A DNA stretch of 64,000 nucleotides from Thermoanaerobaculia bacterium (lineage in GTDB: Bacteria; Acidobacteriota; Thermoanaerobaculia; Gp7-AA8): NCBI GenBank assembly GCA_035276475.1, contig DATELQ010000048.1, positions 87 to 64,086 of the forward strand, given 5' to 3'. Below the pieces are notes generated by a model. It made no database searches and was not told the DNA's origin. It saw only the letters and a program-made list of their open reading frames with translations. The position numbers and the translations under genes were made by a program. Within the stretch, counting starts at the first letter, position 1; each line of letters begins with the position of its first letter. This document shows, in pieces, positions 2,466-62,752 of this stretch.

Positions 2466-5400
2466 ATGAAAGCCATTGCCACCGCCTGTGCTGTATTGCT
2501 GCTGGCAGGTGCCTGCAAACCTGAAGACACCAGCGGGGGCGGCGTGTGGGGGCGAACCGTCGAGCCGCGTTTGACGACGACGCGCTCGTGGCATGTCTGC
2601 ACGCCGGAATTATCGCCGGACCGCGCCGTCGCCCAGGCTCGATGCGCCGCGCCGCCGCTGCTGAAAGGTCGCTGCGACGACGTCGTCAATTCCTACGACG
2701 AGGCGACCGCGATGCTGGTGTCGCGTCCGCAGTGCACCGACGCGGCCATTGCGGCGCTGGAAAGGTTCTCCCGCGACGACGCGGCGGCGCTGAGCGACCT
2801 GGCCGCCGCGTATTACGTTCGCGCGCAGCGGAAAGACGATCCGGCGGATCTCCTCCTGGCCTTTGACGCCGCCCAACGCGCTGTGGCCATGAAGCCGCAG
2901 CCGCCGGGCGCGCAATTCAATGCCGCATTGATCCTCCAGGCGTTGTCGCTCAATGACGACGCCATCGACGCCTGGCAACGCGCCGCGGCCGTCGAGAAAG
3001 GAGAATGGGCGGATGAAGCCCGCGGACGTCACGCGGAATTGAAGCGCGCCATGACGCAAAACCAATGGCCGCAGGTCCGGGCTCAGATCGATGCTGCCCT
3101 CGACGCGCACGACGTGGTCAGCACGCGAAGCCTCATTGCCCTTTTTCCGGCGACTGCGCAGAAGCATTTCGAGGAGGACGTGATCCCTCAATGGGGAAAC
3201 GTCGCGCAGGTAACTACGTTCGCCGAGGCCTTGTCGCAATTCTTCAATGACAACTATTTTCGCGACGTTGCCGCGAAGATCGTCCATGCGCCGTCGCCGG
3301 CGTTGCGTGAGGGCCACCTCCGATTCGCGCAGGCTCGCGCCGCTGAAGCGTCACTCGGCCCTGGGACCGCCGCACCGCTTTACGAGCAGGCGGCACGGTT
3401 GCTGCGGGAGGCTGGAAGCCCGCAGCAATTGCTTGCCCGCATCGGCCATGCCGGACAAATCCCGTTCGTCACTGACCGTTACGAGCCCTCGCGCCGGGAG
3501 CTCGATGCCGTGGCGGCCGCGGGGCCGTCTTATCCGTCAGTCATCGCCCGTGTAGAGCTGAGTCGTCTCAACGTCGATCAATTCCTCGACCGTTACGACG
3601 CGCTGTTCCGCGCCTACGAAGCAGCGATGACTGCATATGGGCGGGTCGGGGATTGGGAAGACTGTGACGCCGCGAGAGCACGCGCCCTCAGTGCGATGAC
3701 GGTCGTGGGGCTCAAGGAGCGGGTCTGGCGCGAAGCGTTCGCCGCCGTACGCGACGCGCCGCGGCTGCAGGATTCGAAGACGCGGCACCTGCTCCTCGGC
3801 ACGGCCGCCAGAGCCGCGCTCAACCTCGGTTATCCGGAGTTGGCGTTGCGCTACCAGACTATCGCCGTCAATACCGCTCCGAACACCGCACACCTCGCCA
3901 TCGCCTTGTCCGAACGCGCGCTCATTCAACTCCGCCTGCAGCGCTATGACGACGCCCAGAGAGACCTCGATTCGGCCGTTCGCGCCAATAAGAAGCTCGT
4001 CGACGACAGCGCTCGCCACGTCGTGGAGGCCCGGCTGGTGGAGGTGCAAGGGGAGAGGACATTGCAGGTCGATCCTAAGCAGGCCGTGCAGACGTTCACG
4101 CAGGCCATCGACTTGGCCTCGAACGCGGAATACACGAGTTTCCGGGCCATGCTCTTTGCGCAACGCGCCGAGGCCTACCGCCGCAGCGGGCGGCTTGCCG
4201 AGGCCGAGGCGGACATGCGTCAGTCCCTCGCCCTATTGCACGGCGAAGAGGAAGGAATGCTCGGCGGGAGAAAACGGGGACAGGACGACGATCTCTGGAA
4301 CGCCTATTTCTCGCGCTTCGAAGAGACCTACGATCTTCTGATCCGGCAATTGATCGGTCAATCGCGCTTCGACGAAGCATTCCGCTATGCCGAGCGCGCC
4401 CGCGCCTACGAGCCGCTCGACCTCGTGCGCAAACTGCCGGCGGCGCCCAAGGCCTTTCGAGCCCTCGCGGCAGACCCCGATCATCTCGACATCGGGAAAT
4501 TGAGCGAGCAGTTGCCGCCGGGTACGTTTCTCATCGAATACCGCGTCTTCGACGATCGGACGTATGCGTGGATTCTCGGCCGTGGCCTCTTCACCGGACA
4601 GTGGCTGAAGGCGGGGAGCGGTGACGTGAAGCGCTGGACGAGCGCGCTACAGAACGGATCGAGCAACAAAGAAGCCTTCGAAGCCGCTCTCGAGCCGGCC
4701 TATGAGGCGCTTCTCAAAGGGCCGCTCGAGTCCATTGGCTCCGCGACGAGGATCGTCATCGTTCCGGACCGCCATTTGCGCGGTCTTTCCTTCGCGGCGC
4801 TGCGCAACCCCGACACGAAGCCGAAGCGCTATGTCATTGAAGACCGTGTCATATCGATGTCCGGCAGTGCGCTCCTGTATGTCTTTGCCCTCCTGCGCGA
4901 CCGCGACCTAGCGCCCGACACCTCCGCGCTCCTGGTCGCCGACCCGGCCTTCAATCAGCATTCGACGCTCGGACAAGGATGGCAGCGACTGCTGTTCGCG
5001 CGGAGGGAAGCGGAGCTGATCCGAGGTTTGTATGGGTCGCCGCAGATTCTCTCGGACAAGGCGGCCACTCCCGAGGAATTCCTCCGTTTGGCCGGGAATC
5101 GCGCCGTCATTCACATCGCCGCGCACGGCGTGGTCAATGGCGGCGCTCCGTCCCAGTCCTACCTTTTGTTCAATGGCGTGCTCAATGCCGAGATGCTCAT
5201 GAACGGACTGCACACCGACAGGACCCGTCTCGTCGTCCTCGGCGCGTGCAGCAGCGCGGGCGGACTGCCGGTCGGCGCGGAAGGCATCGCTCCGCTGGTC
5301 CGGCCGATCGTCGCCGCCGGCGTGCCCGGCGTCGTCGGCGCTCTGTGGGACATCAACGACGCCACGACGGCCGACCTTCTCGTGTCTTTTCATCGTCACT

Positions 5401-50044: not shown

Positions 50045-50932
50045 TTACGCGATCCGCGCCGCCCGCCCGGCCAGCCACACCCCCGCGAAGATCATCACCC
50101 CCGCGACGATTGCCACCGCCCGGATCTGCTCGCCGAGGAACATCGCGGCGAGCATCACGGTCATGACCGGCTGCAGGTAGGTGTACGCCGCCACGAGCGA
50201 GCTGTCGGTGTGCGCGAGCGCCCAGGCGTTGAGCAGGTACGCGGCGATCGTCGGGCCGGCGATCACGAACGCGAGCGACAGCCACGCCCCCGGCGGAATC
50301 GCGCGCCAGTTCAGGCGCAGCATCGGCACGGCGGCGATCGGCAGCATCACCACTGCGGCGATCGCGAACATCCTCGCCACCACGCGCAGCGGCGACAAGC
50401 GCGCCATGTCGCGCTTCGACAGCACGAGGAACAGCGCGTAGGCGAGCGAGTTGCCGATGATCAGAAGATCGCCCAGGAGCGACTTTGTCGCGCCGCCGAA
50501 GCCCTCGCCGCCGACCACTGTCAGCGCCCCCGCCGCGGCGAGCGCGATCCCGGCGATCTTCATCGCCGTCACATGCTCTTCACCGAACACCATCGCCGCG
50601 CCGAGCGTGAAGACCGGCACGGCCGTGATCAGAATCGCCGCGACGTGCGCCGACGTCAGCGCCAGGCCGGCCAGGAACATCGACTGATTGATCACCACGC
50701 CGAGGAGCGAGTAGAGCGCGACGCGCTTGAAGTCGGCGCGCGAGAGCGGCGCCGCGCCGCGGATCAGCGCATTCATCACGATCGCCGCGCCGAGCACGCG
50801 CAGGTACGCGAACGTGAACGGATCGAACGACGACATGCCGAGCTTCGACACGACGTAGTTCACCGCGAAGAGGAAGTTGACGGTGAAGAGTGCGAGGTGA
50901 ATGACGCCGCGGCTAGGACTCAAGCCACACAT
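50045..50932 (-). CDS. DMT-superfamily (EamA) transporter
   Basis: 10 TM helices as two EamA halves. Overlaps the upstream gene end by 20 nt. Confidence 0.85.
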   Translation of the reverse strand: MCGLSPSRGVIHLALFTVNFLFAVNYVVSKLGMSSFDPFTFAYLRVLGAAIVMNALIRGAAPLSRADFKRVALYSLLGVVINQSMFLAGLALTSAHVAAILITAVPVFTLGAAMVFGEEHVTAMKIAGIALAAAGALTVVGGEGFGGATKSLLGDLLIIGNSLAYALFLVLSKRDMARLSPLRVVARMFAIAAVVMLPIAAVPMLRLNWRAIPPGAWLSLAFVIAGPTIAAYLLNAWALAHTDSSLVAAYTYLQPVMTVMLAAMFLGEQIRAVAIVAGVMIFAGVWLAGRAARIA

Positions 50933-53900
50933 CCGCGTAGCGCACCGGCGGCGGCACCAGCGACGTCCGCAGCCCGCGCACGCTCGGCTTGTGCAGCACG
51001 AAGAAGCGCTCGTGGAACAGCGGCACCAGCGGCGCCTCCTCGACCACGCCGCGGTCGAGCTGGCGGTAGATCTCCGCGCGGCGGTCCATGTCGTTCGTGC
51101 GGCGCGCCTCCAGCATCAGCGCGTCCCAGTCGTTGCGATGGAAGTGGAAGCCGCGCAGCGAATTCGCGTCGGAGTGGAAAAACACGTAGAAGAAATTGTC
51201 GGAGTCGGGGAAGTCGGCGTACCAGTTGCCGCAGAAAACGAGCCCGTGCCCGGCCGTGTTCAGCGGCTTGCGCGCCTCCACCGCCGAGTGCTCGCTGACG
51301 CTCACCTCGATCCCCACCGCGGCCAGGTCCTCGAGGATCAGCGCGAGCTGCCCGGAGTTGCGGAACTCGTCCGTGTCCCACGTCCGGTAATTCACGCGGA
51401 ACCCGCCGCCGTAGCCGGCTTGGCGCAGCAGCGTGCGCGCGCGCTCGGGGTCGTAGTCGTAGCCGCGCAGACTGGCGTCGTAGCCGAGGAGGCCGGGCGG
51501 CAGCAGCGCGCGCGAGATCACGCCGAGGCCGGCGAAAACCTCGTTGTTGATCCGGTCGCGATTGATCGCGTAGTTGATCGCCTGGCGCACCTCGCGCTTG
51601 TTGAACGGCGCCACCGAGCAGTCGTAGCCGAAGTACGACGTGTGCAACTGCACCGTCGTCAGCATGTACGGCGCGTAGCGCGGATCCTCGCGCAGCTCCG
51701 ACACCATCTTCAGCGGCACGCCGTGGGCGATGTCGATCTCCCCGCGCAGGAATGCCTCCGCCACGTCGCGGAAGCTGCGCAGGTCGAGGCGGAATGTCAG
51801 CTCGTCGAGGTGTGGCATGCCCGGAACGTAGTAGTCGCGGTTGCGGCGCATCCGCACGTGCTTCCCTTCGACCGCCTCCTCGACCTTGAACGGCCCCGCG
51901 CCGGCGGGGTTGAGCCGGAAGTGCTCGCGGTCGCGCGCCTCCTCGGCCGGGATGATCACCGTCTCGTTCATCGTCAGGAGCGAGAGGAAGAACGCCAGCG
52001 GCTCGTCGAGCGTGATGTCGACCGTGTAGGCGTCGCGCTCGACGATGCCGGCCAGGCGGCGCGTGCGCCCTTCGAGCACGTCCTTCGCCCCGCGCACGTT
52101 GAGGAGCAGCCACGACGCGCCGGAGGCGTTCTCCGGCAAGAGCGTGCGCACGAGCGAGTCGTGCACGTCCTTCGCCTCGAAGAGCCGCCCGTTCGAGAAG
52201 CGCACGCCGCGGCGGAGATGGAAGCGGTAGACGTGCCCCTGCTCGAGCACCTCCCACCGCTCGGCCATGCCGGGCATCAGCTCCGCCCCTTCGCCGTAGA
52301 CGACGAGATTCGAGTGCACCGCCTTCGACATGTAGCCGAGCGCCGCGGCGCCGATGTAAATCGGATCGAACGTCAGTTGCTGCCACAGCACCGTCGACGT
52401 CGCGATCGCGCCGCCTTCGCTCGGCGACGGCAGCGTGAAGCGGCCGAGCTCCGAGCCGAGCAGCGTCGACTCGTGCGACAGCGTGTTCGCCATCTGATTG
52501 AGATCCGAGATCGAGACGTTCGACTCGCGCGTGGCCTGCTGCACCACGCCCATCGCCTTCACGATCGCGGACGACTCCGTGGCCAGGATCGACGTCGCCT
52601 CGAGCACGTTCTGCACGAGGCCCATCACGTTCTCCATGGCCTTGCTGATGGCCCGGCTGCCGGTCTCCTGCTCCGACATGGCCCGCTTGAGGTGCTTCGT
52701 GTAGTCGCGCACCGTGGCGGCCTGCTCGCCGACTTTGCGCGACGTCTGCGACTGCTGCTGCGTCGCCGTCGCCGTCTGCTGCACCATCTTCGTCACTTCT
52801 TCGATGGCCGCCGTGGCCGCGGCGCTGCCGCGCGCCTGCTCCTCGGTCGCACGCGCGATCTCGCCGATCGAGTTCGTCGAGCGCGCGGTGAGGTCGAGGA
52901 TCTTGTCGAGCACCTGCTCGGCGCGCGCGGTGAGGCCGACGCCGTCGGCGACGCGGTCGGCGCTGAGGGTCATCTGCTCCGCGGCGCGGTCGACGGCGCG
53001 CTGCACGTTCTGGATCAGCGTGCGGATCTCGTCGGTCGAAACCGAGGTGCGCTCGGAGAGGTCGCGGATCTCGTCGGCGACCACGGCGAAGCCTTTGCCG
53101 CGCTCGCCCGCCTGCGCGGCGATGATGGCGGCGTTGAGCGCGAGGAGGTTCGTCTGCCCGGCGATCTCGTCGATCACGCGCACGATCTCGCCGATCTCCT
53201 GCGAGCGCGCAGCGAGCTCGCCGAGCGCGTTCTTGGCCTCGTCGACGGCGTCCTCGATCTTGCGCATGCCGTCGACCGTCCCCTTGACCGCCTCGCGCCC
53301 TTCGTTCGCCGCGTCCTTCACGTACCGCGCGAGCTCGCTCGACGACTTTGCCGACTTCCCGATCTCCTCGGTCGTGGCATTCATCTCCACCATCGAGCTC
53401 GCCGTCTGCAGCGCGAACGACGAGAACGACTCCGTGTTCGTCGCCACTTGATTGATCGACGCCGACATCTCCTCGAACGCGCTCGCCGTCTGGTCGACGA
53501 AGTCGGAGAGCGTGTCGGCGATGCGGCCCACTTCTTCGATCGACGCCGACATCTCCAGGACGGACGTCGACGTCTCCTCGGCGTTGGCGGAGAGCTCTTC
53601 CATCGACGTGCGCACGTTGTTGATCGACTGGTCGATCTGGCTGACCGACGCGGATGTCGTCTCCGTCGACACCAGCTGCTCGCCGGCGCTCTTGGCCAGG
53701 ATCCGCGAGCGGCCGCTGATCTGGTTGCTGACGGTGGAGACGTCGGTGGCGAGTTGGCCGAAGCGGCGGATGGTGCGCTCGAGGTTGGAGACGAGGGCGC
53801 GCATCGCGTCGGCCATGCGCGTCGACTGCGCCGCCGAGCGGATGTCGTTCGCGCTCAGGGAGAGGTCGCCGCCGGTGATGCGGTGGAGGAGCTGGATCGC

Positions 53901-54107
53901 GGAGTCGCGGCGCTGGACGATGGTGCGCAGCCAGAGCTGGAAGAAGGTGATGCAAATGCCGCTGGCGACGAGGGCGGCCAGCATGATGCGCCACCAGAGC
54001 GCGAAGGTCATCGCGCCGATGAACCAGAGGAAAGAGCCGAAGAGAACGATGCAGACAACGACGAGCACCCACATCTGCTGTGCGCGACCGAAGCGCCGTC
54101 CGTTCAT
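50913..54107 (-). CDS. Methyl-accepting chemotaxis protein fused to a C-terminal family-5 solute-binding (DppA/OppA-like) domain
   Basis: ATG 54107. TM hairpin, then MA domain with the invariant tip EIAGQTNLLALNAAIIAAQAGERGKGFAVVADEIRDLSERT. The following ~520 aa are SBP_bac_5-like (RFSNGRLFEAKDV, YYVPGMPHLDELTF, INYAINRD). Confidence 0.85.
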   Translation of the reverse strand: MNGRRFGRAQQMWVLVVVCIVLFGSFLWFIGAMTFALWWRIMLAALVASGICITFFQLWLRTIVQRRDSAIQLLHRITGGDLSLSANDIRSAAQSTRMADAMRALVSNLERTIRRFGQLATDVSTVSNQISGRSRILAKSAGEQLVSTETTSASVSQIDQSINNVRTSMEELSANAEETSTSVLEMSASIEEVGRIADTLSDFVDQTASAFEEMSASINQVATNTESFSSFALQTASSMVEMNATTEEIGKSAKSSSELARYVKDAANEGREAVKGTVDGMRKIEDAVDEAKNALGELAARSQEIGEIVRVIDEIAGQTNLLALNAAIIAAQAGERGKGFAVVADEIRDLSERTSVSTDEIRTLIQNVQRAVDRAAEQMTLSADRVADGVGLTARAEQVLDKILDLTARSTNSIGEIARATEEQARGSAAATAAIEEVTKMVQQTATATQQQSQTSRKVGEQAATVRDYTKHLKRAMSEQETGSRAISKAMENVMGLVQNVLEATSILATESSAIVKAMGVVQQATRESNVSISDLNQMANTLSHESTLLGSELGRFTLPSPSEGGAIATSTVLWQQLTFDPIYIGAAALGYMSKAVHSNLVVYGEGAELMPGMAERWEVLEQGHVYRFHLRRGVRFSNGRLFEAKDVHDSLVRTLLPENASGASWLLLNVRGAKDVLEGRTRRLAGIVERDAYTVDITLDEPLAFFLSLLTMNETVIIPAEEARDREHFRLNPAGAGPFKVEEAVEGKHVRMRRNRDYYVPGMPHLDELTFRLDLRSFRDVAEAFLRGEIDIAHGVPLKMVSELREDPRYAPYMLTTVQLHTSYFGYDCSVAPFNKREVRQAINYAINRDRINNEVFAGLGVISRALLPPGLLGYDASLRGYDYDPERARTLLRQAGYGGGFRVNYRTWDTDEFRNSGQLALILEDLAAVGIEVSVSEHSAVEARKPLNTAGHGLVFCGNWYADFPDSDNFFYVFFHSDANSLRGFHFHRNDWDALMLEARRTNDMDRRAEIYRQLDRGVVEEAPLVPLFHERFFVLHKPSVRGLRTSLVPPPVRYADVWLES

Positions 54108-54137
54108 CTCTCCACGCGATGCTACCATCAGCCCGCT

Positions 54138-55013
54138 TTGAACGACTACTTCGCCGCGCGGCGGTCGCTCATCGACGAGCATCTCCGCGCGCTGGCCGGG
54201 CGCGCCGGCGCCCCGAAGCCGCTGGCCGAGCCGCTGCGGCGCGCGTTCACCTCGCCGGGGAAACGGGTGCGCGGGATCCTCACGCTGGCGGTGGGGGAGT
54301 CGTGCGGGGCGAAGCCGGAAAAGCTCCTCGACGCCGCCGCGGCGATGGAGATGATCCACACGTCGTCGCTGATCCTCGACGACCTGCCGGCGATGGACGA
54401 CGCGCAGCTCCGCCGCGGCGCCCCGACGCTGCACCGCGAGTTCGGCGAAGACCTGGCCATTCTCTCCTCGGTGGCGTTGCTGAATCACGCCTACGGGCTG
54501 GTGGCGCGCAATCACGCGGCGACGTCGCCGCGGCAGTGGCCGATGCAGCAGGTTCTGAAGCGCGTCGTGGATGCCGTCGGCTTCGACGGCACGATCGCGG
54601 GGGAGGCCGTCGACCTGCACAGCGAAGGCTCTGCCTTGGACTTCGACACGTTGGAATTCATCCACTCGCGCAAGACCGGCGCGCTGTTCGTCGCGGCCGC
54701 TGCCGTCGGCGGGATGCTGGCGAACATCTCGCCCGCGGCGTTGTCGCGCATCGAGACGTTCGCGAAGAACCTCGGCCTGGCGTTCCAGATCACGGACGAC
54801 GTGCTCGACGTCGTCGGCACGCCGGAAGTCCTCGGCAAGGATGTGGGGAAGGACGCGCAGCGCCTGACGTTCGTGAAGCTCGCCGGCGTGGACGGCGCGC
54901 GCAAGCTGAGCGAGGAGCTGGTGGAGACGTCGCTCGCGGCGATCTCGAACCTCGGGCCGGGCGCGACGCCGCTGCGGGAGCTGGCCGTGCTGGTGCGCGA
55001 TCGCGTGAAGTAG
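54138..55013 (+). CDS. Polyprenyl (geranylgeranyl/farnesyl) diphosphate synthase
   Basis: TTG 54138 (no in-frame ATG nearby). FARM motif LILDDLPAMDD and SARM motif ITDDVLD. The rest of track ORF 50901..55013 is antisense shadow. Confidence 0.85.
   Translation: MNDYFAARRSLIDEHLRALAGRAGAPKPLAEPLRRAFTSPGKRVRGILTLAVGESCGAKPEKLLDAAAAMEMIHTSSLILDDLPAMDDAQLRRGAPTLHREFGEDLAILSSVALLNHAYGLVARNHAATSPRQWPMQQVLKRVVDAVGFDGTIAGEAVDLHSEGSALDFDTLEFIHSRKTGALFVAAAAVGGMLANISPAALSRIETFAKNLGLAFQITDDVLDVVGTPEVLGKDVGKDAQRLTFVKLAGVDGARKLSEELVETSLAAISNLGPGATPLRELAVLVRDRVK
54872..55013 (+). repeat. Left copy of the direct repeat (functional 3' end of the polyprenyl synthase gene)
   Basis: Aligns with 57702..57834. 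A 47-nt identical core (GAGGAGCTGGTGGAG...CTCGGGCC) is followed by mostly synonymous third-position mismatches. Confidence 0.8.
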
Positions 55014-55116
55014 CTACGCTGAGCTCTACTTGTCTGCGGTTCCATTCCCTCATGGGCACCAATACTTTCTCTCTGGATTCGCCTTATAAGTTCGCCCTAT
55101 ACTTCTGCCACGCCCG

Positions 55117-56646
55117 ATGTCTGTAATTCGGAGAATTGTGCTCGTAGATGAGCCGCGGCATTCCCTATGGCAGCAGGTCACTGCGGAGCTCGACCGTATC
55201 TTGTCGGCGGCCGCCGCAGAGGTTCAGAGCGATATCGAAGTTCGAATTGCGTTAAATCCTGTTTCCGAGGTTCCGACGTGCTTCATCGGTCATGCGGCTT
55301 CCCGCGAGTGGAAAACCCCGATTGACGATGCCAACGGAGAGCACTGCTGGATACTTACCTCAGGTGGTGCACTCTCCGACGAAGAGGTGGTGTTCGACGG
55401 CGACCGGGTTCTCAGACTCTCCCATGTCTATAGCCGGGTGCCTCACTTTCACGATTGGTTTTTGGCTTGGATTCATGCAGGACTGGATCGACAACATTTT
55501 CGTCAGATTGCCGGCGAGCTCATTCAACCTACCAGCCGCAACGTCATTTCCGTTTGCCGCCGTCTGCAGATTACTGCGACATCGTTGCATGCGATCACCG
55601 GCAGCGCCCTCGCTGCGGTACGGAGCCGACCTTCGGCTGAAGCGGAGATTATCGACTGGGCGGTGGAAGGCATTCAACTTGCGCTCGCCGATACGGATCT
55701 TCACGAGGTCAACGTCGATTACACATTCCTGCGTTTCGCCGTAAAGGACAAGGATCTCTCCAAACGGTTGCGACACGTTTTTCACCCTCGAACGGGTGCT
55801 GTCGTCCATGCCGTCGAATGGACACGTGCCGCCGGCGATCTTGAGCGACTGGACAAGGCGCTGGCGAACGGCTTGTCTTGGCTAGCCGCGGTTGTTTCCG
55901 GAGAGCTGAACCTCCAGGATCAATTGTGTAAGCTCGAAGATCAGTTACGGGTGGTTGTTTTTGCGTTAGCGCGTTTGGCCCGTGGCCGCAGCATTCGTTC
56001 TTCTCGTTTTGTTTCCATCGTCCAGTCCGAGTGGGCTGTGCATGTACTGCGAACCGCTGTCGCGTTGACATATCCGCCTGCCGATGATAGCCGCTGGTTG
56101 ATCGGCAACTATGGTCATACACCGCTGCATCCCGGTGCGTTGCAGGAAACGGCTTTGGTGCGAGCGGCAGCGGACGTGGAGCTTTTGAGGCGACTGCTGT
56201 CATTTGATGTCGAAAGGGCATCCGTTGTTCATGAAGGCAACAATCGACTAATGGCCATTGTGCCTATGATCGATTTGATCGATCGGTTCCGTGCGCCTGA
56301 ACACCTTCTGCGTCGACAGAACGCCTTGCAGCGTTTGACAGACATCGCCGCGAATTTGGAATCGAACCCGCCGCGGATCATCGAGTTCCTGACGACTCTC
56401 GAAACTCGTGGCTTCCAGATGACAACTGTTTTCCGCAGAGAATCCGAGGATGCCATCGCTGCGCTCCGGCGATTGCCCCGGCACCTCGGCATCCTGAAAT
56501 CAAATGATTCTAGAGAAGCGGTCGAGGCGATCCGTGCCGATATGAGGCTGATACGCAATACCCTATCGACAATTCGTTCGACGCAGACCTTTGGCTTTTC
56601 CGTCGTCGATCTTCACTCGTCATTGATGGACGGGCGAGGCCGCTGA
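55117..56646 (+). CDS. Hypothetical 509-aa protein, no recognisable domain (islet gene 1)
   Basis: Only long ORF on this strand here. Its stop overlaps the next gene's start (TGATG). Mostly helical-looking sequence. No motif I can name. Confidence 0.7.
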   Translation: MSVIRRIVLVDEPRHSLWQQVTAELDRILSAAAAEVQSDIEVRIALNPVSEVPTCFIGHAASREWKTPIDDANGEHCWILTSGGALSDEEVVFDGDRVLRLSHVYSRVPHFHDWFLAWIHAGLDRQHFRQIAGELIQPTSRNVISVCRRLQITATSLHAITGSALAAVRSRPSAEAEIIDWAVEGIQLALADTDLHEVNVDYTFLRFAVKDKDLSKRLRHVFHPRTGAVVHAVEWTRAAGDLERLDKALANGLSWLAAVVSGELNLQDQLCKLEDQLRVVVFALARLARGRSIRSSRFVSIVQSEWAVHVLRTAVALTYPPADDSRWLIGNYGHTPLHPGALQETALVRAAADVELLRRLLSFDVERASVVHEGNNRLMAIVPMIDLIDRFRAPEHLLRRQNALQRLTDIAANLESNPPRIIEFLTTLETRGFQMTTVFRRESEDAIAALRRLPRHLGILKSNDSREAVEAIRADMRLIRNTLSTIRSTQTFGFSVVDLHSSLMDGRGR

Positions 56647-57686
56647 TGACGACTGTCCATATTCCAGTTAATCCGTTCACTACAGATACTGCAAGGTTGT
56701 CGGTAGCAAAAATCATCGATCGTGACGCGGAACTGTTGAAGCTGCGCGAAGCGCTTTTGCTGCATCGCGAGAACGTGCTTGTGGTTGGTGAAAGCGGGAT
56801 CGGCAAAACGTGTTTGTTGCGTAAGTTCAGAAACGAATTGCAGGCGCAGAACGCCGTTTCCATTCTCATGGTCGAGATTGGCCCGGATGCATTGTCGGAG
56901 GGGGCGTCGAAGTTTCTCGCGAACGTAACGCTCCGTATCTTCAGCGCGGCGGCAGCTCGGCTCTTCAACTTATCGCCGTCCGCACTGCTTACCGGCTTAA
57001 TGTCGGAGATGGATATTACCAGGCGTACCAAAAGCAAGCTAAATCACTTCCTGAAGCTGTTCGCACTCATTAGGCCCGATGTTACGAAACTCACAATCAG
57101 TCGCACGAATGATGCGGGGGTATCTTTTGGCGCGTCCGTCAAGCTTGCCGAGACGATGTCGACCACGCGCGACGTCGGTGGGCTGTCGTCGTTCGAGTTC
57201 ATGGAGCTGACGGCCGAACTACTTCAGATCCTCGCACAAGACGGCATCACACAAGTGGTCGTTTTCGGGGACGAAGCAAATCATTTGAAACCCGAAACAG
57301 AGGTCGAACTGATCTTGCACAATTTAGAAGCTTTCGCGGAGAGGAACGTTTTGTTCGTGCTCACCATGAGACCTGATTTGCTCCGTGCCACATCCGCGCT
57401 CCACGCCGCCTTCCCCTCGCTATGCGAAGTGGCTGCATTCAGCTACGAGAAGCTCGAGGAGTTACTTCGAGCATATGCCTTATGTGAATGCTCGGCCACG
57501 CACGTCAGCTTCAGCGAATCGATCGCTCAAGAGGTCCTTCAGGTTTCGCAGGGCCATCCACGGCAGGTTCAGATTCTAGGGCAGAAAATGTGGGCACGGG
57601 CGTTCGCCGCCGAGCGTGCGATTGCGACGGTTGAAGACCTACTCCACGCGATCCGGGAAGTCTATACATTGTCGCCCAGGCTGTAA
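56646..57686 (+). CDS. P-loop NTPase, AAA_16/Orc1-Cdc6/STAND-like (islet gene 2)
   Basis: IDRDAELLKLREALL...VLVVGESGIGKTCLLRKF (Walker A) and VVVFGDEANHL (Walker B). About 346 aa with no effector domain. Confidence 0.8.
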   Translation: MTTVHIPVNPFTTDTARLSVAKIIDRDAELLKLREALLLHRENVLVVGESGIGKTCLLRKFRNELQAQNAVSILMVEIGPDALSEGASKFLANVTLRIFSAAAARLFNLSPSALLTGLMSEMDITRRTKSKLNHFLKLFALIRPDVTKLTISRTNDAGVSFGASVKLAETMSTTRDVGGLSSFEFMELTAELLQILAQDGITQVVVFGDEANHLKPETEVELILHNLEAFAERNVLFVLTMRPDLLRATSALHAAFPSLCEVAAFSYEKLEELLRAYALCECSATHVSFSESIAQEVLQVSQGHPRQVQILGQKMWARAFAAERAIATVEDLLHAIREVYTLSPRL

Positions 57687-57701
57687 CCGGTCCCATTGAC
57701 C

Positions 57702-57834
57702 CGTGAAGCGGACGGCACGGGCAAGTCGAGCGGAGGAGCTGGTGGAGACGTCGCTCGCGGCGATCTCGAACCTCGGGCCCGGCGCCACGCCGCTGCGGGA
57801 GCTGGCGGTGCTGGTGCGCGACCGCGTCAGGTGA
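57702..57834 (+). pseudogene. Decayed duplicate of the polyprenyl synthase 3' end (right direct repeat)
   Basis: Same sequence as 54872..55013 with a 10-nt deletion, a 1-nt insertion and point changes. An in-frame TGA lies just upstream (57697) and there is no start codon. Abuts the queA stop. Confidence 0.8.
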
Positions 57835-58564
57835 TCAGCATGCTGTCGCCGAAGAGGTCGAAGCGATAGCGGCGGCGAACGAGCTGGCGATACGCCGTCA
57901 GCGTCAGTTCCTTTCCCGCGAAAGCGACGACCATGGCCAGGTGGCTCGATCGCGGCTGGTGGAGGTTCGTGAGCATGGCGTCGACGATGCGGAAGCGGTA
58001 ACCCGGATGGATATAGAGGTCCGTCCAGCCGCTGCCGGGCCGCGCTTTCGTCGCTTCGAGCGTGCGCACGACGGTGGTTCCCACCGCCACCACCCGCCCG
58101 CCGCGGCGGCGCGCGGCGAGGATGGCGCGCGAGGCCGCGGGGGTGACTTCGTACCACTCGGCCGGGACTTCGTGCTCTTCGAGGCGCTTCGTCCGGATGT
58201 CGCGGTATTGACTGAGCTCGGTGAGGCCGATGTGCAGCGTGATCGCGGCGACCTCCACGCCCTTCGCGCGCAGGCGGTCGAGGAGGTCGGTCGTGAAGTG
58301 CAGGCCGGCCGAGGGGATCTCCAGCGAGCCGGGCTTCGTCGCGTAGACGCTGCGGTAGCGCTCCGACTTGCGCTTCATGTTGCGGTGCTGCGGCGCGAAG
58401 CGGTGGCCGAAGCGCTCGAGCAGCGGCACGAAGTCGCCGTCGTGTTCGAAGCGCGCCAGCCAGAGGTCGTCGACGCTCGGCGCGCGTCGCCCGCCCGGAA
58501 GCCGCCCCGGCACGAAGCTGATGAGACGGCGCGGCAGACGGAAGTCGAGCTCCGCGGTGTCCAT
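57827..58564 (-). CDS. queA: S-adenosylmethionine:tRNA ribosyltransferase-isomerase, unusually short form
   Basis: Conserved QueA blocks: RYRSVYA, SAGLHFT, ITLHIGL, VAVGTTVVRTLE, NLHQPRSS, YRFDLFGDSMLI. Only 245 aa. Confidence 0.7.
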   Translation of the reverse strand: MDTAELDFRLPRRLISFVPGRLPGGRRAPSVDDLWLARFEHDGDFVPLLERFGHRFAPQHRNMKRKSERYRSVYATKPGSLEIPSAGLHFTTDLLDRLRAKGVEVAAITLHIGLTELSQYRDIRTKRLEEHEVPAEWYEVTPAASRAILAARRRGGRVVAVGTTVVRTLEATKARPGSGWTDLYIHPGYRFRIVDAMLTNLHQPRSSHLAMVVAFAGKELTLTAYRQLVRRRYRFDLFGDSMLIT

Positions 58565-58648
58565 AAGGGTATTGTTGCCGATTTCCGCCGTGGAATGTCC
58601 CGGAGGGAACTGTGTTATCTTCCCGCGCCGCAGTTGCCTGCCTCGTAA

Positions 58649-58724
<76 letters not shown>

Positions 58725-58738
58725 CCGAGTCGATCGAG

Positions 58739-59095
58739 CTAGTGACGACCGCTGCGATGCAGCGGCTTCGTGCCGGTCTTCTTAGTCTCCGGATTCACAT
58801 TTCCCTTTGTCGACCAGTTGTCGCTCTTCGTGTCATTCGCACGCGTTCGATTGTGAGGCTCGACGCGCGTCCCTTTCTTCGTGACATAGCCGTTCACGTG
58901 GACCTTGTCGGGGGTGCTTGTTCTCGTGCCGTGGACCTGTTTGTGGCCGCTTCCGTGTGCGCCGCCGCCTCGGGTGTGACCGTTGCCTCGGGTATGACCG
59001 CCGCCGCGGCGGCCGCCTCCATGTCCGCCGCGCGCGAACGCGGGAACGGCAATCAAGACGATCGACATCAGGCATGCGGCGAGTGCTTTGGTCAT
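58739..59095 (-). CDS. Small secreted Gly/His/Lys-rich protein
   Basis: Signal peptide (LMSIVLIAVPAFA), then GGHGGGRRGGGHTRGNGHTRGGGAHGSGH. Confidence 0.5.
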   Translation of the reverse strand: MTKALAACLMSIVLIAVPAFARGGHGGGRRGGGHTRGNGHTRGGGAHGSGHKQVHGTRTSTPDKVHVNGYVTKKGTRVEPHNRTRANDTKSDNWSTKGNVNPETKKTGTKPLHRSGRH

Positions 59096-59185
59096 GGTCT
59101 TTCCTCCATGAGGAGGTAGACACCGCGGCGTGACTTTTGTGGCTGCGATTGGGAAGGGAAAACCTCCGCCGCGTCACTCCTAGGA

Positions 59186-60565
59186 GTGAGGGACCCCATG
59201 CCTCGCTATCGCGTGACCATCGCCGGCAAAACCTACGATGCCATGGCGGATCTCGTCCGACGGCACCGGCTCGGCATTGCCGGCCATACGGGCAAGAAGG
59301 CCCGCCGCGGCTACGTCGTCGACGCCTTTGCCGACTCTGCGCAAATCGAGGCGCTGAAGTCCGCCGGCTATCAGGTCGACGTGCACGAAGACGTACGTGA
59401 AGCGGGCGGGCGGCGGCAGGCGGAGGTCCGGTCCTTGGCTGTGCATGCCGCGGCTGCGCCGGGCGGCGTTGCCGCGGCGAATCAATACCTCAATGTCGAC
59501 GACGTCGAGAGCTCGCTGGGGAGGCTGGCCGGCGGGCCCAATGGTGCGTTCACAGAGCTCATTTCACTTCCCAATACGACGTGGGAAGGGCGGGCGTGCC
59601 ATGCTCTGCGCATCGGGAAAGGAAATCAGGGCGGGCGGCCGGGCATCTTCTTACTCGGAGGGATCCATGCCCGCGAATGGGGGAGCGCCGATATTCTGAT
59701 CAACTTCGTCGAGCAGCTTTGCGACGCGTTCCGCCTCCATACCGGCATCACCCTCGGCGGTATGAGCTTCACTGCGGCGCAAATCCAGGACATCGTCAAT
59801 GACAAGGACGTCTACGTTTTCCCGCAGGCGAATCCCGACGGCCGCCATTACAGTATGACGACGGCTCCCGATTGGCGCAAAAATCGGCGACCGGCGCCGG
59901 CGGGCAGCAGCGATCCGAACTGCGTCGGCGTGGATCTCAATCGCAACTACGATTTCCTTTGGAGATATACGACGCACTTCGCGCCCAACGCGCCGGTCGC
60001 GAACTCCACCGATCCTTGCGATCCCGAGGTTTATATCGGTCCGTCGGCGGTCTCGGAGCCGGAGACCAAGAACGTCGTATGGATGTTCGACCGCTTTCCC
60101 AATATCCGCTTCTTCGCCGACGTCCACAGTTACTCGGAAGACATTCTTTACAACTGGGGCGACGATCAGGATCAGAGCAAGCAACCGCAGAAGAATTTTC
60201 TCAACCCGGCATTCGACGGAAAGCGCGGCGTGGCCAACGACACCGCGTACAAGGAATTCATCCCGGCAGCGGACAAGACGGCAGCCGTCAAGCTTGCGAA
60301 AGAAATGCGCGCGGCAATCAAGGCCGTGCGCGGCCGCAATTACACCGTCATGCAGTCGATGAGCCTCTATCCAACCGCGGGAGCGTCGGACGATTACGCA
60401 TACAGCCGCCATCTCGCCGATCCCGCCAAGCCGAAAGTCTTTTCATACACAATCGAGTGGGGGAGCCCGGACAACGAGACGCCGTTCCATCCTCCCTATC
60501 CGGAGATGAAGCAGATCATCCGGGAGATCACGGCGGCACTGCTCCAGTTCTGTCTGCGCGCGTGA
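59186..60565 (+). CDS. M14-family zinc carboxypeptidase
   Basis: GGIHAREWGS (HxxE zinc site), GVDLNRNY, and a later His (ADVHSYS). An alternative start lies at ATG 59198. Confidence 0.8.
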   Translation: MRDPMPRYRVTIAGKTYDAMADLVRRHRLGIAGHTGKKARRGYVVDAFADSAQIEALKSAGYQVDVHEDVREAGGRRQAEVRSLAVHAAAAPGGVAAANQYLNVDDVESSLGRLAGGPNGAFTELISLPNTTWEGRACHALRIGKGNQGGRPGIFLLGGIHAREWGSADILINFVEQLCDAFRLHTGITLGGMSFTAAQIQDIVNDKDVYVFPQANPDGRHYSMTTAPDWRKNRRPAPAGSSDPNCVGVDLNRNYDFLWRYTTHFAPNAPVANSTDPCDPEVYIGPSAVSEPETKNVVWMFDRFPNIRFFADVHSYSEDILYNWGDDQDQSKQPQKNFLNPAFDGKRGVANDTAYKEFIPAADKTAAVKLAKEMRAAIKAVRGRNYTVMQSMSLYPTAGASDDYAYSRHLADPAKPKVFSYTIEWGSPDNETPFHPPYPEMKQIIREITAALLQFCLRA

Positions 60566-60807: not shown

Positions 60808-61504
60808 CGGCGCTCGCTCCTTTCATGGCCCGATGCGCGGCGAACGACTGCGTCGCGGCCGCAGCGGCGTTGAACATCGTGGCCACGGCCACGCCGGCCG
60901 TGCGGATCAGGCGCAGCGCGTCGGCGCCGCCGCCGAACGCGCCGGCGATCGACGTCGCGCCGGTATTGATCATCCATCCGACGACCGAGACGGCCAGAAA
61001 GCCGAAGATCCAGGAGAGCCGGCCGCCGCGCAGCGCCAGCGTACTCATGGCCAACGGGGCGATGAGGGTAAAGGTGATGACGTCGGCGAGCACGGAGATC
61101 AGCGCGCCGGGCTGCAGCGAACCGGAACGGAGTGCCTGCCACTGCGCCAGGAGCGAGACATGGCAGAGCGCGATCGCCACCGCCAGCGCCGCCGCCGTCA
61201 GGAGGATCCGCTTCGCCGCCGACATCAGGTATCCGATCCCCGCGGCGGAGAGCACGCGCGCCATCAGCCAGTACGCGGCGATCTGTGCGAGGTTCGCGGC
61301 GATCAGCGTGGCGTTCAGCGCCAGCGTGGCGTCGGGCGCGGCGCGGCGGAGGACGTAGTTGACGAGGAGAAGCAGAAACTCGAGCGAGAAGAGCGCCCAG
61401 GCCCGGCCGAGGTGCTCGTGCCACCAGGCGAACTTCGCCGCCGCCGTGCCGGCTGCGACCGCAGCGAGCGCGTAGAGAACGATTCGGACGAGGAAGAACG
61501 ACAT
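60800..61504 (-). CDS. Hypothetical 7-TM membrane protein
   Basis: Seven hydrophobic segments by eye. No recognised family. Confidence 0.6.
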   Translation of the reverse strand: MSFFLVRIVLYALAAVAAGTAAAKFAWWHEHLGRAWALFSLEFLLLLVNYVLRRAAPDATLALNATLIAANLAQIAAYWLMARVLSAAGIGYLMSAAKRILLTAAALAVAIALCHVSLLAQWQALRSGSLQPGALISVLADVITFTLIAPLAMSTLALRGGRLSWIFGFLAVSVVGWMINTGATSIAGAFGGGADALRLIRTAGVAVATMFNAAAAATQSFAAHRAMKGASADA

Positions 61505-61575
61505 CTCGCCATCATAGATGAACGATGCCGTTCACGCATGGGGGGGTAGTCGGCGCCGCCGATGCGAGAGTGCAT

Positions 61576-61882
61576 GTCCATGGACGTTCAAACGCGTCGG
61601 ACGAGCGCATTCTCCGGCGCTGCGGACGCACGATTGCGTCGGGATCACGGAAGCGCGCAATCCATGGACATTTTCGTCGTCGATTCGCGTCCGCGTTCGG
61701 CATCCATGGACGTTGGATCGCGTGTGCGACCTCCGTCAACGCAATCCATGGACGTTCGAATGCTTCGACGAGCTCAGTTTCTGATGCTTTCGGACGCGCG
61801 ATTGCGTTGGAATCGCACAAACACGACATCCATGGACGTTTAAATGTGATCCGGCGTCAGATTCACGACATCCATGGACATT
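61576..61882 (+). repeat. Phased array of six 13-bp motifs RTCCATGGACRTT (42-bp register)
   Basis: Copies start at 61576, 61660, 61702, 61744, 61828 and 61870. Spacings are 84, 42, 42, 84 and 42. Degenerate GGACG-containing units occupy the skipped registers at 61618 and 61786. Confidence 0.85.
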
Positions 61883-61926
61883 TAATCGATACCGGAGGAC
61901 AACCTCGTGCGTCGTATTGATGAATC

Positions 61927-62169
61927 ATGACGCTACGACGTGGCATCGATCGAGACGCAGCACGCTTCGGCGCGATCGTTCGACGTCTGCGCGAGAAGAA
62001 AGGCTGGACTCTCGTTCAGTTCGGACGAAAAGCCGACATGCATCCCTCGTATCTCAGCACTCTCGAACGGGGAGCCAACACGCCGTCGCTGACGTGCATC
62101 CTTCATTTGGCAAAAGTCTTCGACGTCGAGGCGTGGACGATCATTGCGGAGATTGAAGGTCTGTCGTAG
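61927..62169 (+). CDS. XRE-family helix-turn-helix transcriptional regulator
   Basis: LREKKGWTLVQFGRKADMHPSYLSTLERGANTPSL is a typical HTH_3 core. 80 aa. Confidence 0.8.
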   Translation: MTLRRGIDRDAARFGAIVRRLREKKGWTLVQFGRKADMHPSYLSTLERGANTPSLTCILHLAKVFDVEAWTIIAEIEGLS

Positions 62170-62752
62170 CCTGCAATCGAATCAACGCCCCATTGACGCT
62201 CGCCCCGGCATCGGACAAAAGAAACCCGATCGTCTCCGCCACCCGTTCCAGCGGCACGCGCGGGGCGTCGGGCATCGCTTTGCGCGAAGCGGGCGTGTCG
62301 AGCGTTCCGGGGAGGAGGGCGTTCGCGGTGATCGGCGTTCCGGCGAGCTCCGCGGCGGTCATCTCGATCAGGGCGTTGAGCGCGGTCTTCGACACCACGT
62401 ACGCCGCGGCGCCGGCGGACTTCGTGATCGTCGCCTCGGAGCTGATGGCGACGATGCGGCCAGGTTGGTCGCGGCGCATGGCGGCGAGCGTCGCGCGGAT
62501 GGCGCGGAAGGCGAGCGTGAGATTGAGCGACATCATTCGGTCCCACGTTTCCGCTGAGATTCCGCCCGCGTAGCCGCCGGCCATGTGCACGAGGCCGTAC
62601 GGCGCGCCGTTTCTGGCGACGGCGGCGCGGAGCGTTTCGTCGGTTGCGAAGTCGTCGCGGCCGAGGAGCACGCAGTCGTAGTCGCGCGCGAGGCGCCCCA
62701 CGACCGTCGTGCCGAGGCCGCCGGTGCCGCCGGTGACGATCAGCGTTTTCAT
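62141..62752 (-). CDS. Short-chain dehydrogenase/reductase (SDR)
   Basis: TGGTGGLG cofactor motif and YVVSK catalytic motif. Confidence 0.8.
   Translation of the reverse strand: MKTLIVTGGTGGLGTTVVGRLARDYDCVLLGRDDFATDETLRAAVARNGAPYGLVHMAGGYAGGISAETWDRMMSLNLTLAFRAIRATLAAMRRDQPGRIVAISSEATITKSAGAAAYVVSKTALNALIEMTAAELAGTPITANALLPGTLDTPASRKAMPDAPRVPLERVAETIGFLLSDAGASVNGALIRLQATTDLQSPQ

Follow-up and report, generated by a model that had tools for sequence, protein, structure and literature searches.

A rare AAA+ ATPase and partner gene pair on a low-GC islet of a Thermoanaerobaculia bacterium, a candidate defence-type module

STAND and ORC-like AAA+ ATPases recur as components of defence systems (PMC12839542). 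Here we examine a gene pair that includes an ATPase of this kind, found in a 64,000-nucleotide stretch of contig DATELQ010000048.1 (GenBank assembly GCA_035276475.1, positions 87 to 64,086 of the forward strand; hereafter the window) from a Thermoanaerobaculia bacterium of the Acidobacteriota. Gene 1 (55117-56646, plus strand) encodes a partner protein of 509 amino acids, and gene 2 (56646-57686, plus strand) a minimal AAA+ ATPase of 346 amino acids. From its genomic context we conclude, with moderate confidence, that the pair is a self-contained mobile two-component conflict module, most likely acting in anti-phage or anti-mobile-element defence. This reading is drawn from the strict pairing and co-evolution of the two genes, from their transport as one cassette of an integron and within integrase islands, from the recurrent immediate adjacency to three different canonical defence systems, and from a patchy distribution with gain and decay that is combined with foreign composition.

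Among described systems, Avs and other proteins of the nucleotide-binding leucine-rich-repeat (NLR)-like STAND type share with the pair a P-loop nucleoside triphosphatase (NTPase) of the STAND/ORC-Cdc6 assemblage and a defence-island context; both also possess a fast-evolving part outside the ATPase that could act as a sensor. The layout differs. An Avs protein is a single polypeptide of 1,000-2,000 amino acids with an N-terminal effector and a C-terminal sensor, whereas gene 2 encodes a bare ATPase (346 amino acids), fused to neither the N-terminal effector nor the C-terminal repeat or sensor of NLR/Avs-type NTPases, and the remainder resides on a separate protein without a recognisable effector. 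Models for Avs in PADLOC and NCBIfam match gene 2 at the P-loop only (E = 0.02-0.06). Small STAND/ORC-Cdc6-type AAA+ proteins also serve as separate defence subunits in bacteriophage exclusion (BREX) systems, namely BrxB and BrxF (iSTAND) and BrxC (PMC12839542), and one member of the family described here (locus L096) lies directly upstream of brxF-brxC. Yet the Walker motifs of BrxB and BrxF are degenerate, while those of gene 2 are intact and conserved; in every other locus the pair occurs without BREX, and no PADLOC Brx model matches it.

Septu (PtuAB), Gabija (GajAB), PARIS (AriAB) and SIR2-HerA resemble the pair as mobile operons of an NTPase and a partner located in defence islands. Their ATPases are of the ABC/OLD or HerA/FtsK type and their partners are recognisable nucleases or NADases. 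The pair, in contrast, joins an AAA_22/AAA_16 ATPase to a partner of a new family, and the PtuA, GajA and HerA models match only its P-loop (E > 0.01). Nucleoside triphosphate-dependent conflict systems with caspase or CHAT effectors, reportedly described by Kaur et al. in 2020, offer a further comparison: a CHAT or caspase-family gene stands beside the pair in two relatives and a NACHT-HEAT gene in one, and gene 2 has faint nSTAND-type matches. The protease neighbour is, however, convergent and present in only 2 of about 19 loci. Neither the window nor the integron cassette contains such a gene, which places it outside the core module.

The initial annotation of this DNA had held that the pair matches no named system, and this was confirmed by comparison with PADLOC v2 (2023) and the NCBIfam (2026) anti-phage models. 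The best matches in PADLOC-DB v2.0.0 reached E values of 0.003-0.08 and covered P-loop segments only, with 0.078 as the best value for gene 1, and the NCBIfam anti-phage models DS41_1, DS8 and Avs4 gave E > 0.01. The pair thus appears undescribed in those catalogues.

In the window, the two genes are coupled, as had been proposed, by a 1-nt overlap in which the TGA stop codon of gene 1 shares a base with the ATG of gene 2 (TGATG; the junction reads CGCTGATGACGA). They occupy an islet (55014-57712) with a GC content of 0.552, the lowest among all 2.7-kb segments of the 64 kb (mean, 0.666; standard deviation, 0.028). GC content at third codon positions (GC3) is 0.59 in gene 1 and 0.65 in gene 2, against 0.90-0.95 in the genes at the flanks. 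The composition of the islet is clearly foreign and far from local values, in agreement with its earlier description as a low-GC insertion. Both open reading frames (ORFs) are real genes, with homologues under purifying selection.

A word-indexed search with gene 2 recovered eight metagenomic homologues, and about a dozen further loci came from scanning 241 million metagenome records for its motif; the gene 1/gene 2 family comprises about 20 metagenomic loci. In all 19 loci with an examinable upstream region, a gene 1 member lies immediately upstream of the gene 2 homologue on the same strand, with junctions that overlap or fall within about 30 nt (the DNA was read for 17 of these loci and gene calls only for two, on the P0013 and P0009 contigs). 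Beyond these two genes, the loci examined share no conserved neighbour. The copy on the P0013 contig matches the window architecture exactly, with proteins of 513 and 345 amino acids and a 1-nt overlap.

The partner occurs in forms of different length. Long forms of 509-547 amino acids are found in the window, in L009, L010 and L092/093 and on the P0013 contig; short forms of about 300-340 amino acids in L002, L003/004/098, L007, L008, L094/095, L096/097, L099/100 and L105; and a form of 162 amino acids, consisting of the N-terminal domain (N-domain) only, in L103/104. The copies in L001, L090, L005/091/102 and the P0009 contig are cut at a contig end or fragmentary. Only the N-domain is common to every form; the helical tail that follows it evolves fast and varies in length, from about 25 to 400 residues. 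Pairwise divergence of the N-domain closely follows that of the ATPase (Mantel r = 0.92, p ~2e-4), which indicates that, at the sequence level, gene 1 and gene 2 co-evolve. In the one comparison made of nonsynonymous to synonymous substitution rates (L007 versus L099), the ratio was 0.35 for the partner and 0.10 for the ATPase; both are under purifying selection, and the partner evolves faster.

The distribution of the family is sporadic. A gene 1 motif scan of 185,579 species genomes found no relative, GenBank plasmids and phages gave no match to either protein, and IMG/VR viral contigs gave P-loop-level matches to gene 2 only. The closest relative of the window copy (L005/091/102; 73-75% nucleotide identity) has decayed, with frameshifts, a deletion of about 630 bp in gene 1, and a truncated ATPase beside a Mutator-family transposase gene. 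In L102, the copy is followed, at the point where the ATPase breaks off, by an ORF of 428 amino acids that is probably this Mutator-family transposase, an assignment made by elimination from a pooled Pfam scan. In this locus (features of L102 at 1-130 and 1621-2907; also L005), the decayed copy is preceded by sequence ending GGTTCAATTCC...CACCA, which looks like a tRNA or tmRNA gene of which only the 3' end lies on the contig; it was not called by ARAGORN or Rfam.

Integron cassettes are reportedly reservoirs of phage defence, according to a 2024 bioRxiv preprint. In L003, and in the independently assembled L004 and L098, the pair stands in an array, represented in three data sets, with an imperfect palindrome of about 70 nt between every gene. 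The L003 array contains seven such attC-like sites, with GTCTAAC...GTTAGAC ends and 23 predicted base pairs, 7 of them with compensatory changes, and a covariance model of the L003-type attC gave E values of 1e-14 to 1e-21. These features identify the palindromes, on sequence grounds, as integron attC sites. The short-form pair is exactly one cassette, placed between two consecutive attC sites, in these three loci only. Six other cassettes in the array (L003 100-7288; also in L098 and L004) encode proteins of 155-324 amino acids without a Pfam match. The L003-built model gave no match near the islet of the window, and the attC search returned only an ambiguous hairpin in L094. In L103, the pair forms a low-GC segment beside a tyrosine integrase and a tRNA-Met gene, on an island that also carries a resolvase and ArdC.

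Known defence genes adjoin the pair in some loci. A SIR2-HerA system, recognised by PADLOC with E = 7e-118 and 4e-232, lies 49 nt upstream of it in L100 and L099. Downstream of it in L094, at a distance of 59 nt, are a convergent type II restriction endonuclease and methyltransferase and then three tyrosine recombinase genes, and in L096 a gap of 252 nt separates its end from brxF-brxC of a type 3 BREX locus. Other neighbours include a CHAT peptidase (L001), a caspase-family peptidase (P0006 contig), a NACHT-HEAT protein (L002) and a transposase (P0009 contig). The recombinase genes of L094 (12663-17323, minus strand) are consecutive ORFs of 608, 536 and 361 amino acids. Matches to the phage-integrase (tyrosine recombinase) family were obtained for the ORFs of 608 and 536 amino acids, and a pooled scan leads us to assume the same for the ORF of 361 amino acids. 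The layout resembles a recombinase-in-trio element. In L010, a 21-nt tandem repeat of about 10 copies (3367-3581; consensus TCGATCAGATCCGCATCGAAA) lies directly 3' of the pair and may be coding on the minus strand.

Integron cassettes are rich in phage-defence systems and also stockpile toxin-antitoxin (TA) cassettes (bioRxiv 10.64898/2026.03.17.712381). A selfish maintenance or addiction module of mobile elements, TA-like and kept because it is hard to lose rather than because it protects against phages, would therefore also account for a pair that always travels as a compact two-gene unit with overlapping genes, that is found in such integron arrays, in integrase islands and beside a transposase, and in which neither protein has a recognisable effector. 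We regard this explanation as unlikely. The proteins (346 and 162-547 amino acids) are much larger than those of typical TA pairs, antitoxins do not usually contain an intact AAA+ motor, no obvious constraint has kept the closest relative copy from decay, and the neighbours are specifically defence systems. Many defence systems are, moreover, TA-like, so that an addiction module overlaps with a defence module.

Synteny, co-evolution, cassette mobility and defence neighbours together support the initial annotation, which had proposed an undescribed defence-type pair: the homologues co-occur syntenically wherever the upstream region could be examined, SIR2-HerA, type II restriction-modification and type 3 BREX genes lie close by in some loci, the pair is absent from the catalogues searched, and gene 1 falls into no characterised family. 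Several observations weigh against a role in defence. Neither protein has a recognisable effector, be it a nuclease, protease, TIR, SIR2 or membrane domain, and the roles given below to both proteins rest on analogy. The neighbours in the window, on the P0013 contig, in L093 and in L010 are ordinary or signalling genes rather than defence genes. The family is also very rare, with about 20 loci in about 15 billion proteins, found only in assemblies of uncultured samples; the neighbourhood statistics thus rest on few cases.

Gene 2 was described at the outset as a minimal P-loop NTPase with intact Walker motifs and no effector, and the comparisons agree. It matches the Pfam families AAA_22 (PF13401; 37.2 bits, cut-off 27) and AAA_16 (PF13191; 34.3 bits, cut-off 32.6), and more weakly NACHT, NB-ARC, nSTAND1/3, ATPase_2 and TniB (E = 8.7e-4). 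Both Walker A (GESGIGKT, residues 47-54) and Walker B (VVFGDE, residues 205-210) are kept in 10 of 10 aligned relatives, where the family consensus reads G-x-x-G-[IV]-G-K-T-C-L-L-[RK]-K and F-[GA]-D-E-A-N-H (VVFGDEANH in the window), respectively. Also invariant or nearly so in this alignment is an N-terminal NPF-x-x-x-T (the NPFT N-motif in the window). Two further conserved motifs are, by their position, candidates for the AAA+ sensors: F-V-[FL]-T (FVLT in the window, with T240) for sensor 1, and G-x-P-R-[EQ]-[IVL]-Q (residues 303-309; GHPRQ in the window, with R306) for sensor 2.

The putative lid region has weak matches only, to TIGR03015 over residues 201-339 (E = 5e-8, far under its cut-off) and to the NB-ARC helical region over 261-323 (E = 3e-4). 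All NCBIfam matches are sub-threshold: TIGR03015, a model of ExeA-like PEP-CTERM ATPases, covers the region just given, and ORC1/Cdc6, IstB (E = 0.06) and Avs4 match the P-loop only. The ORC1/Cdc6 model TIGR02928 reached 17 bits against a cut-off of 181, and Pfam detected no winged-helix domain. The best PDB sequence match is TnsC (E = 0.005, P-loop only). By Pfam and the alignment, the 346 amino acids comprise an ATPase core and putative lid, with no further sensor or effector domain. On these sequence features, gene 2 is a minimal AAA+ ATPase of the AAA_22/AAA_16 type within the ORC/Cdc6-STAND assemblage, and it is presumably active.

Gene 1, by comparison, stands apart from described proteins. 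Scanned singly, it and ten relatives gave nothing significant in Pfam, NCBIfam or PADLOC, and its family profile had no match among PDB sequences. Word-indexed protein searches, with the single sequence or a profile, returned only gene 1 itself and fragments; relatives surfaced in an exhaustive phmmer search of 1.84 billion representative proteins, with ten matches at E <= 0.001. These are the window protein, six full-length proteins (509-547 amino acids), two fragments of one decayed copy and one spurious match, P0016, a 1,976-amino-acid repeat protein (E = 1e-7) that we rejected as repeat-driven.

A confident AlphaFold2 model built from a small alignment reached a mean predicted local distance difference test score (pLDDT) of 81.4 and a predicted template modelling score (pTM) of 0.62; residues 1-143 alone reached 86.8 and 0.85. 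In this model, residues 1 to about 135 form a predicted five-stranded, flavodoxin-like alpha/beta domain, and residues from about 136 to 509 are all-helical and carry a conserved PPxDDxRxLI loop (about 318-329). Foldseek returned no match at E <= 0.001 in the PDB, with the full-length or the N-domain model, or in BFVD, with the full-length model. The N-domain shows a generic flavodoxin-like resemblance to MdaB, lumazine synthase, PTS IIB and receiver domains (best E = 0.012; template modelling scores of 0.3-0.5). By profile as well as structure search, PDB and BFVD included, gene 1 belongs to no characterised family; the earlier statement that it cannot be assigned to any nuclease, protease, TIR, SIR2 or membrane family is upheld by Pfam, NCBIfam, PADLOC and Foldseek. 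Both the gene 1 family and its predicted fold family are new by these comparisons.

Residues W18, C55, H59, G83, F111, W114, W118, F128 and L135 of the N-domain are invariant in 13-16 diverse relatives. C55 and H59 form a C-x3-H motif on strand 3, G83 lies within [ST]-G-[GA] after strand 4 (S or T at position 82), and Y105-G-R-E (Y105, R107), after strand 5, is kept in all but one of these relatives. Because their positions fall at the C-terminal ends of strands 3-5 in the predicted secondary-structure layout, H59, [ST]82-G83, Y105 and R107 probably line one pocket. We rejected several assignments for this protein. H59, [ST]82, Y105 and R107 resembled D57, T87, Y106 and K109 of CheY, but a receiver domain is contradicted by hhalign comparison with five receiver domains (probability 0.2%), by a model without helices 2 and 4, and by Foldseek receiver matches at only E ~0.3. 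Caspase-like Cys/His or Ser/His dyads and TIR or SLOG folds had no such structures among the Foldseek matches listed, and for HEPN (Rx4-6H) the R-x-H spacing is not conserved, with no HEPN among the Foldseek matches listed.

The generic flavodoxin-like fold of the N-domain is common in signalling domains, and the pair could in principle be a cellular regulatory or signalling pair, an ATP-dependent switch with its adaptor, acquired by chance and unrelated to conflict. The window and the P0013 contig have housekeeping neighbours, and in L093 the pair follows MASE1 and PAS-GGDEF genes, with a 4-nt overlap with the latter. Set against this are the extremely sporadic distribution and foreign composition of the pair, its carriage by an integron and by islands, the recurrence of defence neighbours and the null receiver-domain comparison, which together leave a signalling role improbable. 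The genes in question in L093 (6180-8383) lie on the same strand as the pair and encode a MASE1 membrane sensor and a PAS-PAS-GGDEF diguanylate cyclase; the overlap, between the cyclase stop and the partner start, may be an operon link to cyclic di-GMP signalling or a coincidence.

For the conflict module that we favour, we propose a working scheme. By analogy with STAND/ORC-type immune switches (PMC12839542), gene 2 would act as a nucleotide-driven switch or as a platform for oligomerisation and assembly, and gene 1 would be its obligate, faster-evolving partner. Through its N-domain, gene 1 would bind the ATPase; H59, [ST]82-G83, Y105 and R107 of this domain may form a small pocket for catalysis or ligand binding, while the lineage-variable helical C-terminal part would serve in sensing or output and is the best sensor candidate. 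A more specific proposal is that the pair is a new anti-phage or anti-plasmid system in which a bare ORC/STAND ATPase controls a partner whose N-domain is a new effector or signalling enzyme with a C-x3-H, [ST]-G-G and Y-G-R-E pocket. This version is tentative, and we consider it possible rather than probable.

How the pair reached the window can be read in part from its flanks. The islet is bounded by two imperfect direct copies (about 120 nt) of the 3' end of ips, the polyprenyl synthase gene that precedes it, identified by repeat search and alignment with relatives. Over 100 nt the copies share 94% identity, and a 1-nt insertion breaks the frame of the right one. The left copy (54893-55011, plus strand) is the current in-frame ips 3' end, ending DRVK-TAG at 55013. 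An AT-richer leader of 103 nt (55014-55116, plus strand) then runs from the ips stop codon to the start of gene 1 and forms the left edge of the islet, and a 3' tail (57687-57712, plus strand) extends from the gene 2 stop codon to the right repeat. The right copy (57713-57832, plus strand) is a frameshifted pseudo-3' end of ips that ends DRVR-TGA, as does the relative L058, and is probably the original ips end displaced by the insertion. A tRNA-Phe (GAA) gene follows at 58649-58724 (plus strand).

With 65-84% identity to its counterparts in genomes of uncultured Thermoanaerobaculia (Acidobacteriota), the ips protein places the host in the Thermoanaerobaculia. Gene 1, gene 2 and the queA fragment found here are all absent from 49 related Thermoanaerobaculia ips loci, and in 21 of them ips is followed by a tRNA-Phe gene on the same strand. 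The spacing between the two is 48-410 nt in 17 of these 21 loci and 569-3,679 nt in the other four; it is 3,636 nt in the window. Between the displaced ips end and tRNA-Phe lies an N-terminally truncated queA (tRNA ribosyltransferase-isomerase; 57827-58564, minus strand; Pfam Queuosine_synth positions 119-322 of 322), whose composition is native-like (GC 0.69, GC3 0.90). Judged against the relatives, the whole insertion consists of the low-GC islet, the displaced ips end and the truncated queA. The queA fragment is a second, unexplained piece of it.

The flanks show the pattern expected of a Campbell-type insertion, that is, a single crossover between the chromosome and a circular unit of about 2.8 kb bearing an ips-like segment. 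Such a crossover would give the duplicated ips 3' end, with incoming DNA now supplying the end of the gene. The module would thus have arrived as a unit of about 2.8 kb and recombined into the 3' end of ips beside tRNA-Phe, duplicating about 120 nt of ips and providing a new gene end. The repeats of about 120 nt are att-like in standing at a gene 3' end beside tRNA-Phe, yet the islet has no integrase gene among its ORFs or in the Pfam scan. No terminal inverted repeats above shuffled controls were found at its ends, and the window holds no second islet copy. The leader contains no detectable consensus sigma-70 promoter, attC site or Rfam element, and promoter, terminator and Rfam scans of the islet gave nothing above chance except tRNA-Phe.

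An islet that was inserted without an integrase, and a unit of about 2.7 kb in which a larger gene overlaps a downstream AAA+ ATPase gene, recall the istA-istB arrangement of IS21. The pair might then be a novel small transposable or integrative element, with gene 2 as an IstB/TniB/TnsC-like helper and gene 1 as a new transposase or recombinase. The similarities of gene 2 to TniB (Pfam), IstB (NCBIfam) and TnsC (PDB), shared in kind with IS21 IstB and Tn7-like TniB/TnsC, point the same way, but these matches are below the family cut-offs and mostly confined to the P-loop. The flanks are duplications of about 120 nt of a host gene and not short target-site duplications, and elsewhere the pair is passive cargo of other elements, bounded by attC sites or beside classical integrases. 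Unlike IS21 and Tn7-like elements, it has no transposase domain and no multiple copies; gene 1 shows neither the signature nor the fold of a DDE, HUH, serine or tyrosine recombinase, and its length ranges over 162-547 amino acids. An IS21-like element was rejected for its lack of inverted repeats and of a second copy in the window, and we regard transposition in general as very improbable.

The window pair might also be an inert remnant of a once larger island, its function lost here. The islet lacks an integrase and a recognisable promoter or terminator, a truncated queA and a frameshifted ips fragment adjoin it, and the closest relative copy is clearly a pseudogene pair. Both frames of the window copy are nevertheless full length, and the copy retains every residue invariant in the family, intact Walker A and B motifs and the coupled 1-nt junction; we give this explanation a low probability.

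Other features of the window deserve mention. GC content dips to 0.55-0.62 just 3' of tRNA-Phe, at 58500-59250, 59750-60500 and 61500-62250. The dips cover an ORF of 118 amino acids rich in Gly and His (58739-59095, minus strand) and an M14 carboxypeptidase gene (59186-60565), and at 61500-62250 small ORFs (61512-61920) without a Pfam match. The tRNA-Phe region may hold further acquired segments. Upstream, an ORF of 1,250 amino acids (50913-54665, minus strand) joins a methyl-accepting chemotaxis signalling domain to a family-5 solute-binding protein domain, an unusual fusion that is kept in related Thermoanaerobaculia genomes at about 77-80% nucleotide identity.

If the pair does not act in defence, it remains a well-delimited, integrase-less insertion of 2.8 kb that rebuilt the 3' end of a host gene. 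If it does, it would add a small module of two genes in which the partner is unrelated to any protein of known function or structure. Known effectors would then give no clue to its output, and it is in such cases that new immune biochemistry usually comes to light. Should the N-domain prove to be a new effector, the pair would represent a split, minimal form of NLR-type immunity with a biochemical output unseen in bacterial defence. Many new candidate systems are known, and few loci carry this one, but it is clean, compact and experimentally tractable. It would present a STAND/ORC ATPase reduced to its motor, with sensing or output placed on a separate, fast-evolving protein, which would be useful for dissecting how such switches are triggered. 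Because the family is confined to environmental bacteria that have not been cultured (soil Acidobacteriota and others, with 42-67% GC), genome-based catalogues missed it. The pair illustrates what metagenomic integron cassettes and small islets still hide.

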